Shown in pieces: positions 11,879 through 32,619 of a stretch of 41,249 nt of DNA. The notes below the pieces were generated by a model, which worked only from the letters and a program-made list of their open reading frames with translations, was not told the origin of the DNA and did not search any database. This stretch comes from an uncultured Candidatus Poseidoniales archaeon. Its GTDB lineage: Archaea; Thermoplasmatota; Poseidoniia; Poseidoniales; Thalassarchaeaceae. The stretch is from the NCBI GenBank assembly GCA_964645485.1, contig CAZXZO010000001.1, forward strand, positions 90,812-132,060, in the 5' to 3' direction. Position 1 is the stretch's first letter. Every line of letters starts with the position of its first letter. The position numbers and the translations under genes were made by a program.

Positions 11879-14800
11879 TTACCGGTATATCTCAGGTAAA
11901 GTTGGTGTTGGTAGACGCCTTTGTGGTGGTTTTCTACGAGTAACCATTGTGAATAGAATGAGGACCCCAAGAATGACTGCCAAACCAATCACAATTCCAT
12001 TAGAAATTGTTGGGCCACCTACTCCAAGTTCGCCAGTTTCATTATTTGTGATAGATTGATTATTTTCATCATTATTTCCCTCACTTGGTATGGCTTCTGG
12101 TGGTGGATTCCACACTTCAAAGAACAGTGTTGAACTAAGTTCAACCACATCGTTCCCGTCTGTTAGAGTGAAAGTTACAACCCATGGGCCAACTGTCTCA
12201 TTGTGTCTAGGGCAAAGTACCTGCTCCATAGTTGAGAAGCCTAGTGGTTCAGAACAATCTATTGGTTGGGTAGCATAGGTTAGCCCTTCATTGGTAGAAT
12301 CGATAATGTATTCACCAACAATTACAGTCTGCGTTCCATCAGGCCAAGTCATAGTCCAGTTGACTTCTGAATTGTTCAGAAGGTCAGGGATGGTGAATGA
12401 CACGTCTTCAAACCAGACCAGCATCACAAACTTCTGATATGAACTATTCAATACAGAACTAGTGTTGTTTTGAGATATTGATGGGTGAACAGTCCATTGA
12501 GTATGAGCCGAGTGGTTGACACCATTGTCAATTTCATCATCACAATCATCGTCAATCCAATTCCAAGTTTCATTGGCGTCCGGTGCGCGCGTCGAGTCAT
12601 TGTCATCACAGTCATCAAACCAGCGGAAGCCATCCCCATCATTGTCTAAGTCAGGCACCAAAGGGTCAGTGTGAGTCACTAATAGTTCATCACCATCGAA
12701 CAAGCCATCACGGTCTGTATCGTTGTGGAATGGGTCGGTGCCAATCAGGTTGAACTCATCCAAGTCAAACAGCCTATCTCCATCGCTGTCAAGCCCGTAG
12801 AAATCCTCATCAATTAAATCATCACAATCGTTGTCAAATCCATCCAAAAGTTCGGGGTTGCCCGGGAAAAGTGAAGCATTTGTATCATTACAATCAGCAA
12901 ACCAATACCAGCCATCGGCGTCGGTATCATTATCGAAAAATAGTGGGTCACTGCTCCAATTTAGCACTTCGTCACCATCAGAAAGCCCATCTCCATCGGT
13001 GTCCCAAAAAAAGTAACCGGTGTTGTAAAAGTGATATTCTGACCAGTCACTAAGTCCGTCATTATCAGTGTCAGATTCGTTGAATCCTTCATCAATGAAA
13101 CCGTCACAATCATTGTCGCGGTTATCCAATTCTTCGGGTGCTCCGGGGAAAACCCACCAGTCATCTTCGTCGCAATCCTCGAACCAATACCAGCCGTCAG
13201 CATCGATGTCATTATCGTAGAATAATGGGTCGGAAAAAGAGGTGTAAACTTCGTATCCGTCTGACATTCCGTCACCATCAGTGTCGTTGTTAAGAGGGTC
13301 AGTTCCGTTGACAAAAACCTCCACCCCGTCAAGTAGACCATCCCCATCACTGTCAGGGTTGAGTGGGTCTGTGGAGTAGTTCAAAACCTCCAAGCCGTCG
13401 TTGAGGAAGTCATCATCTGTATCGTTGTCAAATGGGTCGGTGCTGTAATTGTTAGTTTCAGCATCATCAAGCAGTCCATCCAAATCGCTGTCACGGCTAA
13501 GTTCTGTTCCGTGGAGAATTAATTGCCAATCTTCGAAAGTTCCAGAAGTGCCACTATCCTTGTCTTCCACACTAATTGTCCAATTACCAACACTGCCTTC
13601 ATCCCAAAAGTGGACCGAAGAGAACATCCAATTATTGTAATCGTTGCCATTGTCACTGTGCTCGGTAGCGAGGACAGATTCTGTGCCGCTAGGTGAAGTC
13701 AATTTGATTTCAAGGTCACCGCGATTGTTGTGATCAATATCAACAACCACCTCAACAGATTCAAGCAGTAAGTCTTGATTTATCGAAAGAGTATCTGTGA
13801 CATCTATGCCGGTAGCATCTGGAATGGCCGAATTTAGAACTTGTAGTCCACTAGTATAGTTACTTTCGTTTTCCACTGTCGTCCAGTTTTCAGCCAAAGC
13901 CACTGCAGCGCCAGCATCAATCACGCCAAATCCGTATTTGTGGCTGACGTCATGTCCCGCACCGTTGACATTCCATGACCAATCATTTGCATCGTTAACA
14001 CGTGCTGAGTTGACTAAAACGTGCTGTACATCTCTCCAAGTGAGGTTAGAGTTTGCCTCCAACATGAGTGCGATAACTCCCGAAACAAGAGGTGTTGCGG
14101 AGGATGTACCACCGAAATTATCGTTGTAATCATTGTTTGTGTAGCCAGCCGAACCTTCGATATCGGTGGTCGTAATGCCTTCCCCATCTCCATCGGATGG
14201 AGCAGCAACTAGGATGTTATCACCCGGTTCAGAATACCATGCGTTGTCTCCGTAATGAGTGGTGGCGGCTACAGCAATTGTGAAGCGACTATTCGCGTAG
14301 CCATCATAGTTTGAGTCATCATCATTGTTCAGACCGTTTCCAGCAGCCCATGTGATGATGTTGCCAAGTCCTGAGCGTCCTTGGTAGACATCTGCTTCAA
14401 ACGCCGCCATCATCAAGGGACCAGGCGCTTCTAATGTGTATCCATTATCGCTAGGTCCCCATGAATTTGAGTAGATGTCAATTGATTGTCTCATATGACT
14501 GAGTGCATTCGCTTCTTTGGTGTCAGAAAGACTGCACGAAATCAACTGTAAACCAGCAAGACCGGCTTGTGGTGCCGCTCCTGAAACTCCGAGGCTGTTG
14601 TTTCCGACTGCAGCGGCTACGCCGGCTGCTGATGTACCATGTCCGTCCCAGTTTGAAGGATTTGGATTGCCATCATTGCCACAATAATCGTAGTCAAGTG
14701 TACTTTCATAGTAATCATCCAAATCAGGATGGTCCCAATCAAGACCGTCATCAACGATTCCGATTACAACTCCAAATCCGGTGTAATTATCCCAAACTGC

Positions 14801-15310
14801 TGTGATATTGACATCTTCACCAGTTGTTCCACTAGTTTGTCCGGTATTCTGTAAATGCCATTGGTCAGAGAATTTGGTATCATTAGGAATTAATTTTTTT
14901 GAAGCATTCCATTCAACCAATGGATAAGCGACTTCAATCACACCATCAGCCTGTAATTTAGCAAACTTATCCACTGCATCTTTGCCCGCATCTGCATCTA
15001 CAATCCATGTGTTGGGCAGGTCTGGTGTAGCCTCCCCCAAGGGTGTTTGACTTACCACAACCCATTGTTCAACTGTAGCCAATTCAGTTTCAGAATATTG
15101 AGATAAATCGCTTACACGCGCAAAAGCCGCCCTTACTGCAGGAGAAAATCCCTGTACGATGGAATCTTCATCACCCATTGGACCAAAAACACCCAAAATT
15201 GGAGTATCTTGTTTTTCTAACCCCTTCTCAATTGTGGAGAGTGAATCACCAAGTACTATCGGTGAGAGAATTGAAACAAGCAGCAAGCCAACGACCAGCG
15301 TATTTCGCAT
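11879..15310 (-). CDS. Kexin/furin-like S8 serine protease with P-domain, Ca-binding repeats and C-terminal TM
   Basis: Signal peptide; triad IVDDG, HGT, GTSSATP; oxyanion AAGNG; SNSWGP; P-domain (HNNRGDLEIKLTSPSGT, GNWTISVED); DxDxDGLxD/TDP repeats; three DCDD...PGAxE..D..DNDCDG motifs; TM followed by RRK. Confidence 0.93.
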   Translation of the reverse strand: MRNTLVVGLLLVSILSPIVLGDSLSTIEKGLEKQDTPILGVFGPMGDEDSIVQGFSPAVRAAFARVSDLSQYSETELATVEQWVVVSQTPLGEATPDLPNTWIVDADAGKDAVDKFAKLQADGVIEVAYPLVEWNASKKLIPNDTKFSDQWHLQNTGQTSGTTGEDVNITAVWDNYTGFGVVIGIVDDGLDWDHPDLDDYYESTLDYDYCGNDGNPNPSNWDGHGTSAAGVAAAVGNNSLGVSGAAPQAGLAGLQLISCSLSDTKEANALSHMRQSIDIYSNSWGPSDNGYTLEAPGPLMMAAFEADVYQGRSGLGNIITWAAGNGLNNDDDSNYDGYANSRFTIAVAATTHYGDNAWYSEPGDNILVAAPSDGDGEGITTTDIEGSAGYTNNDYNDNFGGTSSATPLVSGVIALMLEANSNLTWRDVQHVLVNSARVNDANDWSWNVNGAGHDVSHKYGFGVIDAGAAVALAENWTTVENESNYTSGLQVLNSAIPDATGIDVTDTLSINQDLLLESVEVVVDIDHNNRGDLEIKLTSPSGTESVLATEHSDNGNDYNNWMFSSVHFWDEGSVGNWTISVEDKDSGTSGTFEDWQLILHGTELSRDSDLDGLLDDAETNNYSTDPFDNDTDDDFLNDGLEVLNYSTDPLNPDSDGDGLLDGVEVFVNGTDPLNNDTDGDGMSDGYEVYTSFSDPLFYDNDIDADGWYWFEDCDEDDWWVFPGAPEELDNRDNDCDGFIDEGFNESDTDNDGLSDWSEYHFYNTGYFFWDTDGDGLSDGDEVLNWSSDPLFFDNDTDADGWYWFADCNDTNASLFPGNPELLDGFDNDCDDLIDEDFYGLDSDGDRLFDLDEFNLIGTDPFHNDTDRDGLFDGDELLVTHTDPLVPDLDNDGDGFRWFDDCDDNDSTRAPDANETWNWIDDDCDDEIDNGVNHSAHTQWTVHPSISQNNTSSVLNSSYQKFVMLVWFEDVSFTIPDLLNNSEVNWTMTWPDGTQTVIVGEYIIDSTNEGLTYATQPIDCSEPLGFSTMEQVLCPRHNETVGPWVVTFTLTDGNDVVELSSTLFFEVWNPPPEAIPSEGNNDENNQSITNNETGELGVGGPTISNGIVIGLAVILGVLILFTMVTRRKPPQRRLPTPTLPEIYR

Positions 15311-27816: not shown

Positions 27817-27866
27817 CTAGGCCATCTAGGAATTAATCAAACAATCTCGTAAGAGAATGTTTTCAA

Positions 27867-30809
27867 TTATAATTCCCATTTTGATTCTTGTGTTTCTGGG
27901 TTGAAGTAATACATATTTCCTTGCTGGTCATATTGCTCAATCCAATCTCCAGAATCACCTTGGTTTGAATTTGGTGGTAAAGCCCTTTCATTACTAGGTG
28001 GCGGCATTTGGGCCCGTGGTGCTGGTTCAGAGGTTGTTGCAGTTGATTGATATGTTGCTTCATCAAGACCCCATGCAACAGCATCCTGCATTGCCTCATG
28101 GATATCATCTCGATTTAATCCATCATCATTTTTCTTCTTTTTAGAAATTTGTAAAACAGTAATAATGATAATTGCTAGGAATGGGACAATAGCTAAAATC
28201 AAAATTGAACCTATATCACCATTTCCTGCTTTATCAGTAACAGTTGCAAAGAATCCATTCATGTCACTATATCCATCAGAATCTGAGTCAGGACAACCGT
28301 ACCTATCCATAGTGGATGTGCCATAGTTGCTAATACATGAATCAGAGTTGTTTCCAATACCATTGTCTCCATACCCATCTCCATCTATATCACTCCATTG
28401 AGTAGCATCAAGAGGGAACAAATCAGGCATTGTAGTTCCTTCGGGGTTATCTCCAAATCCATCTCCATCAGTATCTTTGCATTGAGTAGGGTCGTTTGGA
28501 TATAGATCAGGATTATTTCCGCTTAAATCATCACCACAATGAGATGTTGATTCAGATTTATTCAATCCATCTCCGTCTTCATCTTCCCATTGTGTTGGGT
28601 CAATAGTAAAGTGATCATAATCGGTACCATCCGCGTTATCCCCATGCCCATCTCCATCAGCGTCATGCCATTGTGTGTCATCGTTGGGGAAAGCATCTGC
28701 AGAACCATCAGGGTGCGCTAACCATCCGCCGTCAGCGTCACTATATCCATCTCCATCAGTATCAGTGCAACCCCATCTGTCTATTGTAGAGGATTGTGTG
28801 CTATCCCCAAACGGACAAGAGTCGCCCTGTGTACCTGCTGAATTATCTCCATGCCCATCTCCATCAGTATCGGAATGTTGGCTAGAATCAAAAGGCCAGA
28901 CATCGGCTCCATCCTCAATGGTCCAATTTGCGTCAGCATCACTATATCCGTCACCATCGGTGTCAAGACATCCAAATCTATCAATTGTGCTTGTCCCCTC
29001 ATCTAAGGGGCAAGCATCGCTTTGAAATGCGCCAGGGATTGCCCAGCCTATATCGTAATCTTGATGATGGAAATATCTAGAGCTTGGACTGAATGAAGTA
29101 TCCCAATCATCTACCCCCTCGTCTGAATTGTCTCCACAATCATCCCATTCGTCATTAACCCAGTTTTGAGGGATGGTGTTGCCGTTATCACAAACATAAT
29201 CTTCGTCTAGAACATCAATGAAATCATTTTCTGCACCCCATGCAGCACATAATAGCACATCCATTCCTTTTTGGCTCGCAGGAAATGCTCCATCATTAAT
29301 TGCAGTTCTAAGTTCATTCATGCAAATAGATGGGTCATATACGTTGGAAGAATCCCCAATCGTTGGATGCATAGCATTGTCTCCAAAACCATCTCCATCC
29401 GAATCAACCCATTGAGTTGAGTCTTGGGGGAAATGATCGGTATCATCTTCAAATCCGTCTCCATCAGAATCAATACATCCAGGGTAATGTTGGAAGTAGT
29501 AATTTGAACCAGCACCAAGAGGGTAAGGGTTATCGTTTCGAGGTGTGTAATCATAATTCAGATGTTCTAAGATTTCTGTTGCTTCTTCAAGTTCTTCTAA
29601 AGTCATTTGTGAATAAATAATATCAGTCAAATCTTTAGCATCTCCGCCATAATGGTCCCACGAAACTACTTCTATCGCTAATGGTCCTACTTCTGATGTC
29701 CCATTCAAAGTTCTATAAAACACCTTGAATGCACTAGTTCCCTCAACTTCTAGACATTGGTCTGAATTATCTCCATAATCGTCACCATCGGTATCATGCC
29801 ATTCCGCCCAATCATACTTGAATGCATCAGCAATTCCAATTGGATGTGCAGGGAATGTAGAATCTGGGTCACTATATCCATCCCAATCAGAATCTGGGCA
29901 ACCATTTCTATCATTGAAACTATATCCCTCAACAAATCTACAGTGGTCTGGATTATTTCCATCAGAGTTATCACCATAACCATCGTCATCTGTGTCATAC
30001 CATTGTGTGTTATCACTGGGAAAGTGATCTCCTTGGTTACCATTTGGGTTGTCTCCATGGCCATCTCCGTCCTCATCTTCCCATTGGGTGTCATCGTTGG
30101 GAAAAGCATCGTCCCCATCACAATGTCCGTCATCATCTGAATCTAGATGTTCTGAACTATCATAGGGGCAATCATCACCATAATCAGACCAGCCGTCACC
30201 ATCATAATCAGGGCAACCATCTCTGTCTTGATATGAATCCCCATCCTCATATTTACAATCATCATCATCATCATCATATCCGTCATAATCGCGATCACGG
30301 TTAGAGTCATCAATAGTTAATGTAATCTTTAACTCTGCTTGGTCATCTCCACCTAATGTGGCTGAATACCCATCATCAATACCTGTAATTTTCAGCTTTC
30401 TATAATCGTTGTTATCTATATGTGTCCATGTATATGAAATCCATGTTGGGGAACCACATGAAGTGTACCCGCCGGAACCAATCCTTCTATCACTCTCCCA
30501 TCCTGTTGAACTATAGCGATATATTTTCGCATATACATTGACATAATCGTGGTCACAGGTATTCTCAATTTTCACATAAACTTCATCACCATAATAGACA
30601 TAAAATTTGAAATAATCATAATGATCTATACCACCTGCTGCAGAATTACAATTATCATCCCAACAAACATAGGACCAAATAATTCCTGGTGAAATTAAGT
30701 CAGCCCCACTTGATGTATCATTTGGTTCAGCCGTAGCTGAAGGAGTTAACAGTATTACAATAATCATTAAACATGATATTTGACAACCAACTCTTAATAT
30801 TCCGCGCAT
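27867..30809 (-). CDS. Single-pass membrane protein with TSP3-type Ca-binding repeats, LDLa-like module and C-terminal WW domain
   Basis: Signal peptide; many DxDxDGxGD...DxFP.D..QW repeats; CDNG..IP..W.ND..DDC.D.SDE; TM followed by KKKK; W-x21-W motif with YYFN at the C-terminus. Confidence 0.88.
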   Translation of the reverse strand: MRGILRVGCQISCLMIIVILLTPSATAEPNDTSSGADLISPGIIWSYVCWDDNCNSAAGGIDHYDYFKFYVYYGDEVYVKIENTCDHDYVNVYAKIYRYSSTGWESDRRIGSGGYTSCGSPTWISYTWTHIDNNDYRKLKITGIDDGYSATLGGDDQAELKITLTIDDSNRDRDYDGYDDDDDDCKYEDGDSYQDRDGCPDYDGDGWSDYGDDCPYDSSEHLDSDDDGHCDGDDAFPNDDTQWEDEDGDGHGDNPNGNQGDHFPSDNTQWYDTDDDGYGDNSDGNNPDHCRFVEGYSFNDRNGCPDSDWDGYSDPDSTFPAHPIGIADAFKYDWAEWHDTDGDDYGDNSDQCLEVEGTSAFKVFYRTLNGTSEVGPLAIEVVSWDHYGGDAKDLTDIIYSQMTLEELEEATEILEHLNYDYTPRNDNPYPLGAGSNYYFQHYPGCIDSDGDGFEDDTDHFPQDSTQWVDSDGDGFGDNAMHPTIGDSSNVYDPSICMNELRTAINDGAFPASQKGMDVLLCAAWGAENDFIDVLDEDYVCDNGNTIPQNWVNDEWDDCGDNSDEGVDDWDTSFSPSSRYFHHQDYDIGWAIPGAFQSDACPLDEGTSTIDRFGCLDTDGDGYSDADANWTIEDGADVWPFDSSQHSDTDGDGHGDNSAGTQGDSCPFGDSTQSSTIDRWGCTDTDGDGYSDADGGWLAHPDGSADAFPNDDTQWHDADGDGHGDNADGTDYDHFTIDPTQWEDEDGDGLNKSESTSHCGDDLSGNNPDLYPNDPTQCKDTDGDGFGDNPEGTTMPDLFPLDATQWSDIDGDGYGDNGIGNNSDSCISNYGTSTMDRYGCPDSDSDGYSDMNGFFATVTDKAGNGDIGSILILAIVPFLAIIIITVLQISKKKKNDDGLNRDDIHEAMQDAVAWGLDEATYQSTATTSEPAPRAQMPPPSNERALPPNSNQGDSGDWIEQYDQQGNMYYFNPETQESKWEL

Positions 30810-30836
30810 AGTTTTATCCGAGATAATATTTTTATT

Positions 30837-32573
30837 TTAATCTTTGTCAACCCATACCTTTCTTTCATCATGCCATTTTTGTATAGGGCCGTCTGCAAAT
30901 TTCCTATAATTAAAGCCGTTATCTGACCAATGTTTTGGCAGTTCTGGTTTTATTGTTTCACTTTCGAATTCATTCCAACTCTTCTCATCATCATTCCATA
31001 TTTGAACGGGGGAGTTTCCCATTTTACGAAAATTATTTCCCTCATCATCTGACCAATGTTTAGGTGGTTCTGGTTTAGTTGATGGTGTAATTTCTGTGGT
31101 GTCTTTATTGAATATATTTTGAAGTAAATTCGGATTTGATCTAACAACTGTGATGGATACAATGGCTATCAGGACAATCAACAATGCGATTGATATTCCA
31201 ATCACTGGGAATTTTGATTCACCACTGGGATTATTATTTGAAATGAATATTGATTTGCAACCGTTTGGTGTTGTTTGTATTCCTAATGGTGTATTTTCAC
31301 AATCATCATTTTCATCAATGACGCCATCATTATCACTGTCAATAAAATCATCACATCCATCAGAAACATTGTCTGAATCTACATCAATTGCATCATCAAA
31401 ACCTGGGCATAAATCAGAATTGTCACCTATTCCATCTCCGTCGGAATCATTACACTCAGAAGGATCATTAGGTAATGAATCAGAATTATTTCCATCCAAA
31501 TTATCTCCACATCCATCACCATCTGAATCAGCCCATTGACTGATATCATTGATGAATGCATCAACATCATCTGTGTATCCATCACCATCTGAATCTAATT
31601 CATATAACCCACAACCATTCTCATCCACACTAACGTTTGTGTTGGTTCTGAGGCAAGAATCATTGTTGTCATCTACACCGTCATTATCATCATCAGGATC
31701 TTCAATACCCCATAATTCATCATTGTCAAAATTAGAATCACAATCTGCACCCCAAATATCCATTACAAAATTGGGATAATCAACAAATGGATTGCGATTG
31801 CCTTGAATCTCAAATATTGCCATATTTCTCTCAAGTTCTCGGCTATCTACTGGGTCATCCACATTCCATTGATACATCGTGCAAAGTTTGCCTAAAGTTC
31901 CCACACCAACAGTCCCGTGTGTGTATCCATTGAACAATGATAAATCAGGTTCATCCAATTCTCCAGAATAGCGAACATCCATGTAAAAAAGAGTTCTAGC
32001 AACATCACCTTTTACCGCATTCGGAGGTTCCCAATAATTATGTGAATAATAGCATTCAGTACATTCTTCATGTTGAATTTCAGCATAATCAAAATCCTTG
32101 TCCCATCTATCATAATTTACTGATTTATCTGTTGGTCTTAAGTTGTGTAAATCAGTTCCCGCAGCCTTTGACCTTTCAGTCCCAAAATCCCCATGAGATC
32201 GTGGCCATACATGTTCTCTATTCCATGAATCATTACTTCTAATGGGGTTCCCATTCCAATCTGAATCATTAGATGGATGTGATCTTCCGGTGTAAAATAA
32301 ATTAATATTATCAGGATTATTGGTAGAATAATCTATTTCTTCAAGATGTTCCCATGTGTCTACATAATATGCTGCAGTATGATTTTTGATAATTTCATGA
32401 AGTTCAAAATGTAACTCGGTATCAGCAACATCTGTTAAATTAACATAGTATCCATCATATTCATTTGAATATGCTGATGTTAGTACTTTAGATTCTAAAT
32501 GTTCTTCAGGCAATAATGCAAAGAGAAATGTAGTGATGAATAAAATTGTTATGAAATATGTAATGGATTTCAA
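30837..32573 (-). CDS. Extracellular Endonuclease I family nuclease with TSP3 repeats and TM anchor
   Basis: WNREHVWPRSHG, DLHNLRP....N, EPP..VKGDVAR.LFYMDVRY, QGNRNPFVDYP. TTG start follows SD GGAGTGA. Confidence 0.9.
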   Translation of the reverse strand: MKSITYFITILFITTFLFALLPEEHLESKVLTSAYSNEYDGYYVNLTDVADTELHFELHEIIKNHTAAYYVDTWEHLEEIDYSTNNPDNINLFYTGRSHPSNDSDWNGNPIRSNDSWNREHVWPRSHGDFGTERSKAAGTDLHNLRPTDKSVNYDRWDKDFDYAEIQHEECTECYYSHNYWEPPNAVKGDVARTLFYMDVRYSGELDEPDLSLFNGYTHGTVGVGTLGKLCTMYQWNVDDPVDSRELERNMAIFEIQGNRNPFVDYPNFVMDIWGADCDSNFDNDELWGIEDPDDDNDGVDDNNDSCLRTNTNVSVDENGCGLYELDSDGDGYTDDVDAFINDISQWADSDGDGCGDNLDGNNSDSLPNDPSECNDSDGDGIGDNSDLCPGFDDAIDVDSDNVSDGCDDFIDSDNDGVIDENDDCENTPLGIQTTPNGCKSIFISNNNPSGESKFPVIGISIALLIVLIAIVSITVVRSNPNLLQNIFNKDTTEITPSTKPEPPKHWSDDEGNNFRKMGNSPVQIWNDDEKSWNEFESETIKPELPKHWSDNGFNYRKFADGPIQKWHDERKVWVDKD

Positions 32574-32619
32574 ATCATCACTCCCTTCATAATTTCAAAT
32601 GGCTGTGGCTTTTTATTTT

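Follow-up and report, generated by a model that had tools for sequence, protein, structure and literature searches.

The C-terminal 26 residues of P0001, a 980-aa protein encoded within a 41,249-nucleotide stretch of contig CAZXZO010000001.1 from an uncultured Candidatus Poseidoniales archaeon (the whole stretch is referred to as the window), were confirmed by profile, sequence and structure-model comparisons as a genuine WW domain of the type found in FBP11, Prp40 and FBP28. WW domains bind proline-rich ligands and are known chiefly from eukaryotes. The original prediction, made from the nucleotide sequence, described a transmembrane helix followed by a KKKK cluster, a proline-rich linker and a WW module that ends at the stop codon. 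Translation reproduced this order, and the positions numbered W1, G9, Y12, N15 and W23 in that prediction correspond to W956, G964, Y967, N970 and W978 of the protein. The gene and its features are arranged as follows.

27867..30809, minus strand: whole gene P0001, encoding a 980-aa type-I surface protein, stop codon included (open reading frame list and translation).
30729..30809, minus strand: putative signal peptide, residues 1-27, MRGILRVGCQISCLMIIVILLTPSATA with EP following, recognized by eye from a basic n-region, a hydrophobic core and an A-x-A-type site.
30270..30728, minus strand: N-terminal non-repeat ectodomain module, residues 28-180, matching no Pfam family.
28344..30218, minus strand: Asp-rich calcium-repeat array, TSP3-like, with 13 D-x-D-[GND]-D-G motifs by motif count.
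29118..29201, minus strand: LDL-receptor class A-like stretch, residues 537-564, inside the calcium-repeat array (PF00057, 17.3 bits, E = 0.0056).
28146..28214, minus strand: single transmembrane helix, residues 866-888 (translation, hydropathy scan and AlphaFold2 helix; kept in orthologs).
28131..28142, minus strand: KKKK stop-transfer cluster, residues 890-893 (translation; positive-inside).
28059..28112, minus strand: juxtamembrane helix, residues 900-917, DDIHEAMQDAVAWGLDEA (AlphaFold2 helix, model residues 41-51).
27960..28031, minus strand: Pro-rich linker, residues 927-950, SEPAPRAQMPPPSNERALPPNSNQ, fast-evolving and modelled by AlphaFold2 with a predicted local distance difference test (pLDDT) value of 40-51.
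27870..27947, minus strand: WW domain, residues 955-980, DWIEQYDQQGNMYYFNPETQESKWEL followed by the stop codon (PF00397, AlphaFold2, Foldseek, VIA and sequence search of the PDB).

The WW family model PF00397 matched P0001 with 31.1 bits for the whole protein and 36.4 bits for the tail alone, above the curated gathering cut-off of 26.9, and the match covered positions 4-29 of the 31 in the model. A six-frame search of the 1.94-Mb assembly (genome G000) returned the same module with 37.5 bits (E = 7.5e-9) as the sole match over the cut-off, while 0 of 14 control genomes gave a match over the cut-off. The signature residues of the family are present, namely W956 and W978 placed 22 residues apart, G964, the aromatic triplet Y967-Y968-F969, N970, T973 and S976, and all are invariant in eight orthologs. 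The C-terminal proline of WW domains, which in the pattern W-x-x-P forms a hydrophobic buckle with the first tryptophan, is missing from P0001. The protein ends with WEL two residues past the second tryptophan, bearing out what had been noticed originally. Since the terminal proline is kept in the deeper orthologs P0007 (WDPP) and that of genome G012 (WDTP), its loss in P0001 is derived.

A model of the P0001 tail was computed with AlphaFold2 from an alignment of the eight orthologs. In the model the transmembrane helix and a second, short helix are followed by a disordered linker and, at the C-terminus, by three strands (model residues 98-101, 107-111 and 116-118) with a pLDDT of 83-87. Almost all of the structures retrieved with Foldseek were WW domains, superimposing with a root-mean-square deviation of 0.6-1.5 A over 24-27 residues at E values of 0.08-0.6; the match to the first WW domain of FBP11 superimposed at 1.2 A over 27 residues with 44% identity. 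The top matches from VIA-align were also almost all WW domains, with Z of 2.8 or less. Of the points that the original prediction had named as decisive, the profile match and the conservation among orthologs were found and the three-stranded fold is predicted.

When the PDB was searched by sequence, the best matches were PRPF40A/FBP11 (E = 1.2e-7), yeast Prp40, WBP4/FBP21 and TCERG1/FBP28 (E to ~1e-4), with 44-46% identity. Pin1 WW chains were matched weakly, at E values of 0.006-0.7, and no class I (Nedd4/YAP) chain was matched at E<=1. The WW domain of P0001 has a third aromatic residue in the triplet Y-Y-F and no histidine at the class I specificity position. Based on these residues and on the nearest relatives FBP11, Prp40, FBP21 and FBP28, the domain is predicted to bind class II/III ligands of the poly-Pro, PPLP or PPR type.

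Seven full-length relatives of P0001 (P0002-P0008, 847-980 aa) are present in public data, each with a precomputed PF00397 match. Their tails are 60-96% identical to that of P0001. Nineteen of the 24 WW core positions are invariant among the eight orthologs and the pattern W[IV]EQYDQQGNMYYFN.ETQES.W is nearly invariant, whereas the linker is variable and almost gone in P0008, the most divergent ortholog; proline runs in the linker are kept in the other seven of the eight. For the WW codons, comparison of G000 with G012 gave 1.26 synonymous substitutions per synonymous site (dS) and 0.14 nonsynonymous substitutions per nonsynonymous site (dN), a dN/dS of ~0.1. Between closer genomes the dN was 0.10-0.13 in the linker versus 0.015 in the WW domain. 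These comparisons rest on few codons, with a consistent direction, and show that the WW domain is under purifying selection. Two P0001 orthologs were also found in a scan of the genome collection with the single protein. The same scan returned an Anaerolineae contig matching over the Pro-rich linker region, which was taken as compositional. Viral contigs were scanned for a viral origin, and no relative was found.

The tail is predicted to be cytoplasmic from topology rules, because a putative signal peptide, an acidic Cys-rich ectodomain (20% Asp, 24 Cys) and a positive-inside cluster occur in that order. The transmembrane helix and KKKK cluster translate as IGSILILAIVPFLAIIIITVLQISKKKK at 28131-28214, and the residues corresponding to the cluster read SKKKK, SRKNK or SRKKK in orthologs. 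The 87 residues beyond KKKK comprise the short helix and the Pro-rich stretch, which together span 27960-28112 in the translation, and the WW domain at the C-terminus. In the juxtamembrane helix V, A, W and E are invariant across the eight sequences, and the G012 copy has an 11-residue deletion. A PGF-CTERM/archaeosortase sorting signal was considered for this end of the protein and ruled out, since the transmembrane helix and KKKK are followed by a tail of 87 aa that is conserved and includes a folded domain. In the ectodomain, the TSP3 Pfam models PF02412 and PF18884 gave no match to P0001 at E<=10 despite the 13 D-x-D-[GND]-D-G motifs, and the LDL-receptor class A-like stretch scored below the PF00057 cut-off of 24.1 bits. 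A precomputed PF00057 match is present in two P0001 orthologs.

The distribution of WW domains was determined in samples of incomplete metagenome-assembled genomes, in which zero counts mean not found. Matches to PF00397 over the cut-off were obtained in 21 of 199 other species sampled from the same family, in 0 of 201 species from the other two families of the order (0/199 in the second large family and 0/2 in the small one), and in none of 364 genomes from a phylum-wide sample outside the family. Four unrelated WW architectures were recognized within the family. The ectodomain-transmembrane-WW type represented by P0001 belongs to genus g1, where it was found in 4 of ~21 species. Genus g10 has, in each of the 15 species sampled, a protein of ~770 aa with an internal complete WW domain (L027-L029; for example, L029:4105-6429) that is identical to the first WW domain of human PRPF40A at 16 of 23 positions, counted by eye, and ~48% identical to the P0001 WW domain. 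The g10 gene is flanked by a DnaG-like gene and a gene for a protein with transmembrane and TPR regions, and the rest of its product is without a family match. No homolog of the g10 protein was found in G000 with this query. Genera g6 and g12 encode a 270-aa protein (L013:650-1459 and L017:1399-2211) with an N-terminal WW domain, in which the first Trp is replaced by Tyr, followed by the Pro-rich sequence PPPDHTQPPQPPMPTP and several transmembrane helices. The fourth type is a 181-aa WW and coiled-coil protein of the G+C-rich genus g9 (L008:1120-1662). These proteins resemble P0001 in scoring over the PF00397 cut-off and in their restriction to this family within the phylum, and those of g6 and g12 also in a Pro-rich linker that tethers the WW domain to the membrane. 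They differ from P0001 in their unrelated host proteins and in the position of the WW domain.

The likely origin of the domain was approached with a 40-residue WW query against 1.84 billion representatives, which returned 679 proteins at E<=0.001; those at the head of the list contain as many as 47 WW repeats. When ranked by the best single stretch, the nearest were tandem-WW low-complexity proteins sharing W.E.YD..GN.YY[FY]N..T.E[ST]SW[ED].P, as exemplified by WIEAYDESGNLYYFNTETEESSWDPP, which is ~65% identical to the G012 copy in a count by eye. The other WW types of the archaeal family are farther, with 24-39% identity over the aligned block. The nearest tandem-WW sources were one MMETSP transcript, one 500-kb contig with exon-like open reading frame fragments and Ank and SLC35 genes, and one contig of 65% G+C; informative names are missing for 9 of the 10 clusters of the nearest environmental WW proteins. 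The MMETSP entry, the exon-like reading frames and the 500-kb contig make it appear that these proteins come from eukaryotic plankton. As the nearest stretches occur there and the archaeal distribution is patchy, capture of the WW domain from eukaryotic plankton is favoured, possibly more than once. The domain was probably acquired horizontally rather than inherited from an ancestor of the lineage.

The gene lies next to one for a surface nuclease, and the two share an insertion site.

30837..32573, minus strand: gene for the surface Endonuclease I P0009, with Asp-rich repeats, a transmembrane helix and a conserved cytoplasmic tail (PF04231, E = 2.4e-35).
30840..31073, minus strand: nuclease tail with two Trp-rich four-stranded mini-sheets that are not WW domains (AlphaFold2, 2 x 4 strands, pLDDT 81-85).

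The nuclease (578 aa) is encoded upstream of the WW-protein gene on the same strand with a gap of 27 bp. The two genes are adjacent in five lineages (G000, G005, G011 and metagenome contigs L066 and L067), including that of the most divergent ortholog. In G000 the pair lies within 27840-32610 between rqc2/NFACT and purP, and in four congeners that are without the WW domain (G001, G016, G003 and G008) purP and rqc2/NFACT are directly convergent with nothing between them. At the flanking genes G016, which has the empty site, is as close to G000 (purP 96% and NFACT 90.5% identity) as is G005, which carries the pair (97% and 89%). Residues 28-180 of P0001, used as query against 121 genomes of the family, matched no genomes but G000, G005 and G011 and, weakly and over part of the length, one of another genus; G012, the fourth WW-bearing congener, was outside this sample. 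The nuclease gene has a G+C content of 33-38% versus ~44%. The conserved pairing, the empty site in congeners, the restricted N-terminal module and the lower G+C content of the nuclease gene show that the two genes form an accessory indel cassette. In G011 (L026:8883-12249) the WW-protein gene is separated from purP by two additional genes, for products of 752 and 353 aa, so that the site is variable even among carriers of the cassette.

Potential partners for the WW domain were sought among the other surface proteins of G000. A crude scan of open reading frames identified at least 13 other type-I proteins with Pro-rich runs beyond the C-terminal transmembrane helix, examples being ...PKPPGPPPPPAGLPPLPRSPPPPPPR, three copies of PPPPPGFD, and APPPPMGAAPPPP. 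Pro-rich tails are encoded, among other places, at C6:8959-13731, C35:1572-4550, C6:39825-40490 and C24:4271-9394. More generally, dozens of type-I surface proteins in this genome have cytoplasmic tails of 40-300 aa without a Pfam family (loci L043-L058). They bear poly-Pro runs, small Trp-rich modules at the C-terminus (at least four sequence types) or zinc-ribbon-like pairs of the form CxxC...CxxC. The tail-bearing loci include the following.

C6:8959-13731, C35:1572-4550, C6:39828-45434, C24:4271-9394 and C7:4510-8547, tail-bearing loci of G000.
C30:9734-12973, C33:14476-16488, C9:35234-39715, C22:15909-19496 and C17:172-5412, further tail-bearing loci of G000.

The four Trp-rich types have the patterns G[YF]EW[IVL]E...WW[FY]R...W, G.TW[YH]..PDG..W.MQ.DGSF, GLP.GWT.EQW..YG.QWL and GW[TS].[ED]Q[IL]..W. 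Hidden WW domains among the Trp-rich tails were looked for with a hidden Markov model of WW domains from the family (22 sequences), run with all filters off, which retrieved P0001 only, and a Pfam search of ten such tails at E<=10 gave no WW domain. In P0001 the canonical WW domain takes the place, at the cytoplasmic end of the chain, where the lineage already carries small folded modules of its own on other surface proteins.

It is proposed with moderate confidence that the domain is a genuine WW domain, captured from eukaryotic plankton, that serves as a membrane-tethered docking module for proline-rich cytoplasmic partners and thereby positions or clusters surface proteins. After uptake from a planktonic eukaryote, the WW domain would hang in the cytoplasm from its flexible Pro-rich linker, ~60 residues below the membrane, and would dock on a proline-rich segment at the cytoplasmic face. 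The likeliest ligands would be the poly-Pro/PPLP-type tails of the 13 or more type-I surface proteins, with a soluble Pro-rich protein as an alternative partner. Docking of this kind could position or cluster P0001, and with it the co-inherited nuclease, among other surface proteins, and signal relay would form no part of it. The domain call of the original prediction stands: a single-pass archaeal protein carries a eukaryote-type WW domain on the side predicted to be cytoplasmic. The receptor- or adaptor-like role with transmembrane signalling also suggested there has gained no support beyond the architecture; neither a signalling partner nor a kinase or a ligand was found. Cytoplasmic scaffolding or docking would be the most reasonable functional reading.

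Several points weigh against this proposal. The structural significance is low for both Foldseek and VIA, a consequence of the small size of the domain (~27 residues), and without the C-terminal proline the WW domain of P0001 may be marginally stable. The cytoplasmic side is predicted from a single rule, that of positive-inside charge. The ligand is a candidate, its class being read from the nearest solved relatives. The postulated eukaryotic origin draws on distribution and on best-hit similarity over ~30 residues, which is too short for a resolved tree. The Pro-rich linker is not kept in P0008, and Pro-rich tails probably also occur in relatives without a WW domain, so that such tails do not need a WW reader.

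The main rival of the docking proposal is use of the domain in cis or between like molecules, whereby it would bind the Pro-rich linker of its own chain, leading to autoinhibition or compaction, or the linkers of neighbouring copies, leading to head-to-tail self-clustering. This possibility is unlikely, though it has a sequence arrangement in its favour: a proline run (PPP, LPP or SPPPP) lies 8-25 residues before the WW domain in seven of eight orthologs, and in two other genera, where an unrelated membrane protein has an N-terminal WW domain, the Pro-rich sequence follows this WW domain directly, ahead of the first transmembrane helix. However, the linker evolves fast (dN 0.10-0.13), contains no PPLP or PPxY core and makes no confident contact in the AlphaFold2 model, and P0008 keeps the WW domain with the linker nearly gone. 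The Pro-rich spacer may instead serve as a mere stiff tether.

A more far-reaching proposal, which is considered distinctly improbable, gives the WW domain the part of reader in a proline-motif network of eukaryotic style under the archaeal membrane. Captured from planktonic eukaryotes, it would dock on the poly-Pro/PPLP tails of a dozen or more other type-I surface proteins in the cell and so join surface enzymes, the co-inherited DNA-degrading nuclease first, into functional patches. If true, these archaea would have a prokaryotic WW/Pro-motif adaptor system of reversed polarity, with the reader on the membrane protein.

It is very improbable that the domain reads a different target, either phospho-Ser/Thr-Pro in the manner of Pin1 or, as a tail tag, the docking partner of other Trp-rich tails. 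Dozens of G000 surface proteins end in Trp-rich cytoplasmic modules of several types, of which the neighbouring nuclease has two, suggesting a pre-existing common logic of tail modules in the lineage, and Pin1 chains were among the PDB matches. Nonetheless, these Trp-rich modules are not WW domains by profile or fold, the best sequence matches are of class II/III and not Pin1, and the long Arg-containing loop 1 typical of Pin1 is missing from QYDQQGN. Equally improbable is a recent or decaying functionless appendage, a neutral passenger cut before the terminal proline. The accessory and patchy nature of the gene and the absence of the proline from the P0001 sub-lineage, when P0007 and G012 keep it, would fit such a passenger; the invariance of the core despite saturated synonymous divergence (dS 1.26, dN 0.14), the retention of the WW domain in eight of eight full-length orthologs and the free variation of the adjacent linker, which the WW domain does not share, argue against it. 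That the module is no WW domain at all, but a Trp-Trp pattern arisen by chance or eukaryotic DNA misjoined in the assembly, is hardly credible even though WW domains are short and consensus-like and the structural scores are individually insignificant, given a profile score over the curated cut-off, the absence of matches over it in the control genomes, and the occurrence of the same gene in the same archaeal neighbourhood (rqc2, purP, TDO and thiolase) in independent assemblies.

Comparison with known systems places the domain nearest to FBP11/PRPF40A, Prp40, FBP21/WBP4 and FBP28/TCERG1, which share with P0001 the pattern W-x8-G-x2-[YF]-Y-[YF]-N-x2-T-x2-S-x-W and three aromatic residues in strand 2. 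Those proteins act in splicing or transcription as soluble nuclear factors and usually combine tandem WW domains with FF domains, whereas P0001, an archaeal membrane protein, has a single WW domain at its C-terminus. The P0001 domain also differs from the FBP11 type in having neither the terminal proline nor the N-terminal L-P, and its ligand class is a prediction. The tandem-WW proteins that appear to come from marine eukaryotic plankton contain the single WW stretches nearest to the P0001 type but are soluble, low-complexity, multi-WW proteins. The Trp-rich tail modules of these archaea hold the corresponding position, being small, folded and placed where type-I surface proteins end in the cytoplasm, but they are four-stranded and propeller-blade-like with no match to the WW profile, whereas the P0001 module is three-stranded and matches it.

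In eukaryotes, WW domains and membrane-protein tails are paired in the PPxY motif of beta-dystroglycan with the WW domain of dystrophin and in the PY motif of ENaC with the WW domains of Nedd4. P0001 would resemble these pairs in having a WW domain at the membrane that reads proline-rich segments, its binding being predicted. The polarity is reversed, however, since in the eukaryotic pairs the motif is on the membrane protein and the WW domain on a soluble adaptor, while in P0001 the WW domain is on the membrane protein. An extracytoplasmic loop of the PMT of M. tuberculosis is WW-like by structure and is not a member of PF00397 (PMC12331936). This loop and the P0001 domain are both WW or WW-like modules at the membrane; the latter is a member of PF00397 and is predicted to be cytoplasmic.

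A paper from 2025 states that all WW domains characterised until then were those of eukaryotic proteins (PMC12331936), and the literature searched yielded no publication on WW domains of archaea or of any prokaryote. The WW family itself is already known, and proteins of the P0001 type are annotated automatically in databases. The novelty lies in the occurrence in a non-Asgard archaeon of a eukaryote-type WW domain that is maintained by selection, has a reversed ectodomain-transmembrane-WW layout and is part of a mobile two-gene cassette. The finding implies that a prokaryote can take up an adaptor module that is a hallmark of eukaryotes and employ it in a layout that eukaryotes do not use, and the host belongs to an abundant group of uncultured marine archaea. 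The scope is limited in that the gene is accessory and its WW domain probably acquired horizontally. The domain is nevertheless small, easily expressed and of predictable ligand class, and it gives an entry point to the role of the many conserved cytoplasmic tails on giant archaeal surface proteins.

The tail of the neighbouring nuclease consists of two copies of a 35-aa Trp-rich module, nearly invariant in five orthologs, with the pattern P-E-[PL]-P-K-H-W-S-D..G.N-[FY]-R-K....P-[VI]-Q-.-W.....K.W. Foldseek matched the modules to beta-propeller blades, and they belong to no Pfam family. The sequences PEPPKHW and PELPKHW in this tail were considered as WW ligands and dropped: in the AlphaFold2 model K-H-W-S is the first strand of each four-stranded module, and the prolines therefore look part of the fold. 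Complex prediction for the WW tail (model residues 36-121) with the nuclease tail gave a score of 0.14, with the mark at 0.32, which counts neither for nor against binding. Another type-I protein in the window, an S8/kexin-like protease encoded at 11879-15310 on the minus strand, has a P-domain and MopE-type and bacterial TSP3 repeats, the latter matching TSP3_bac, and ends in a short Pro-containing tail, TRRKPPQRRLPTPTLPEIYR.

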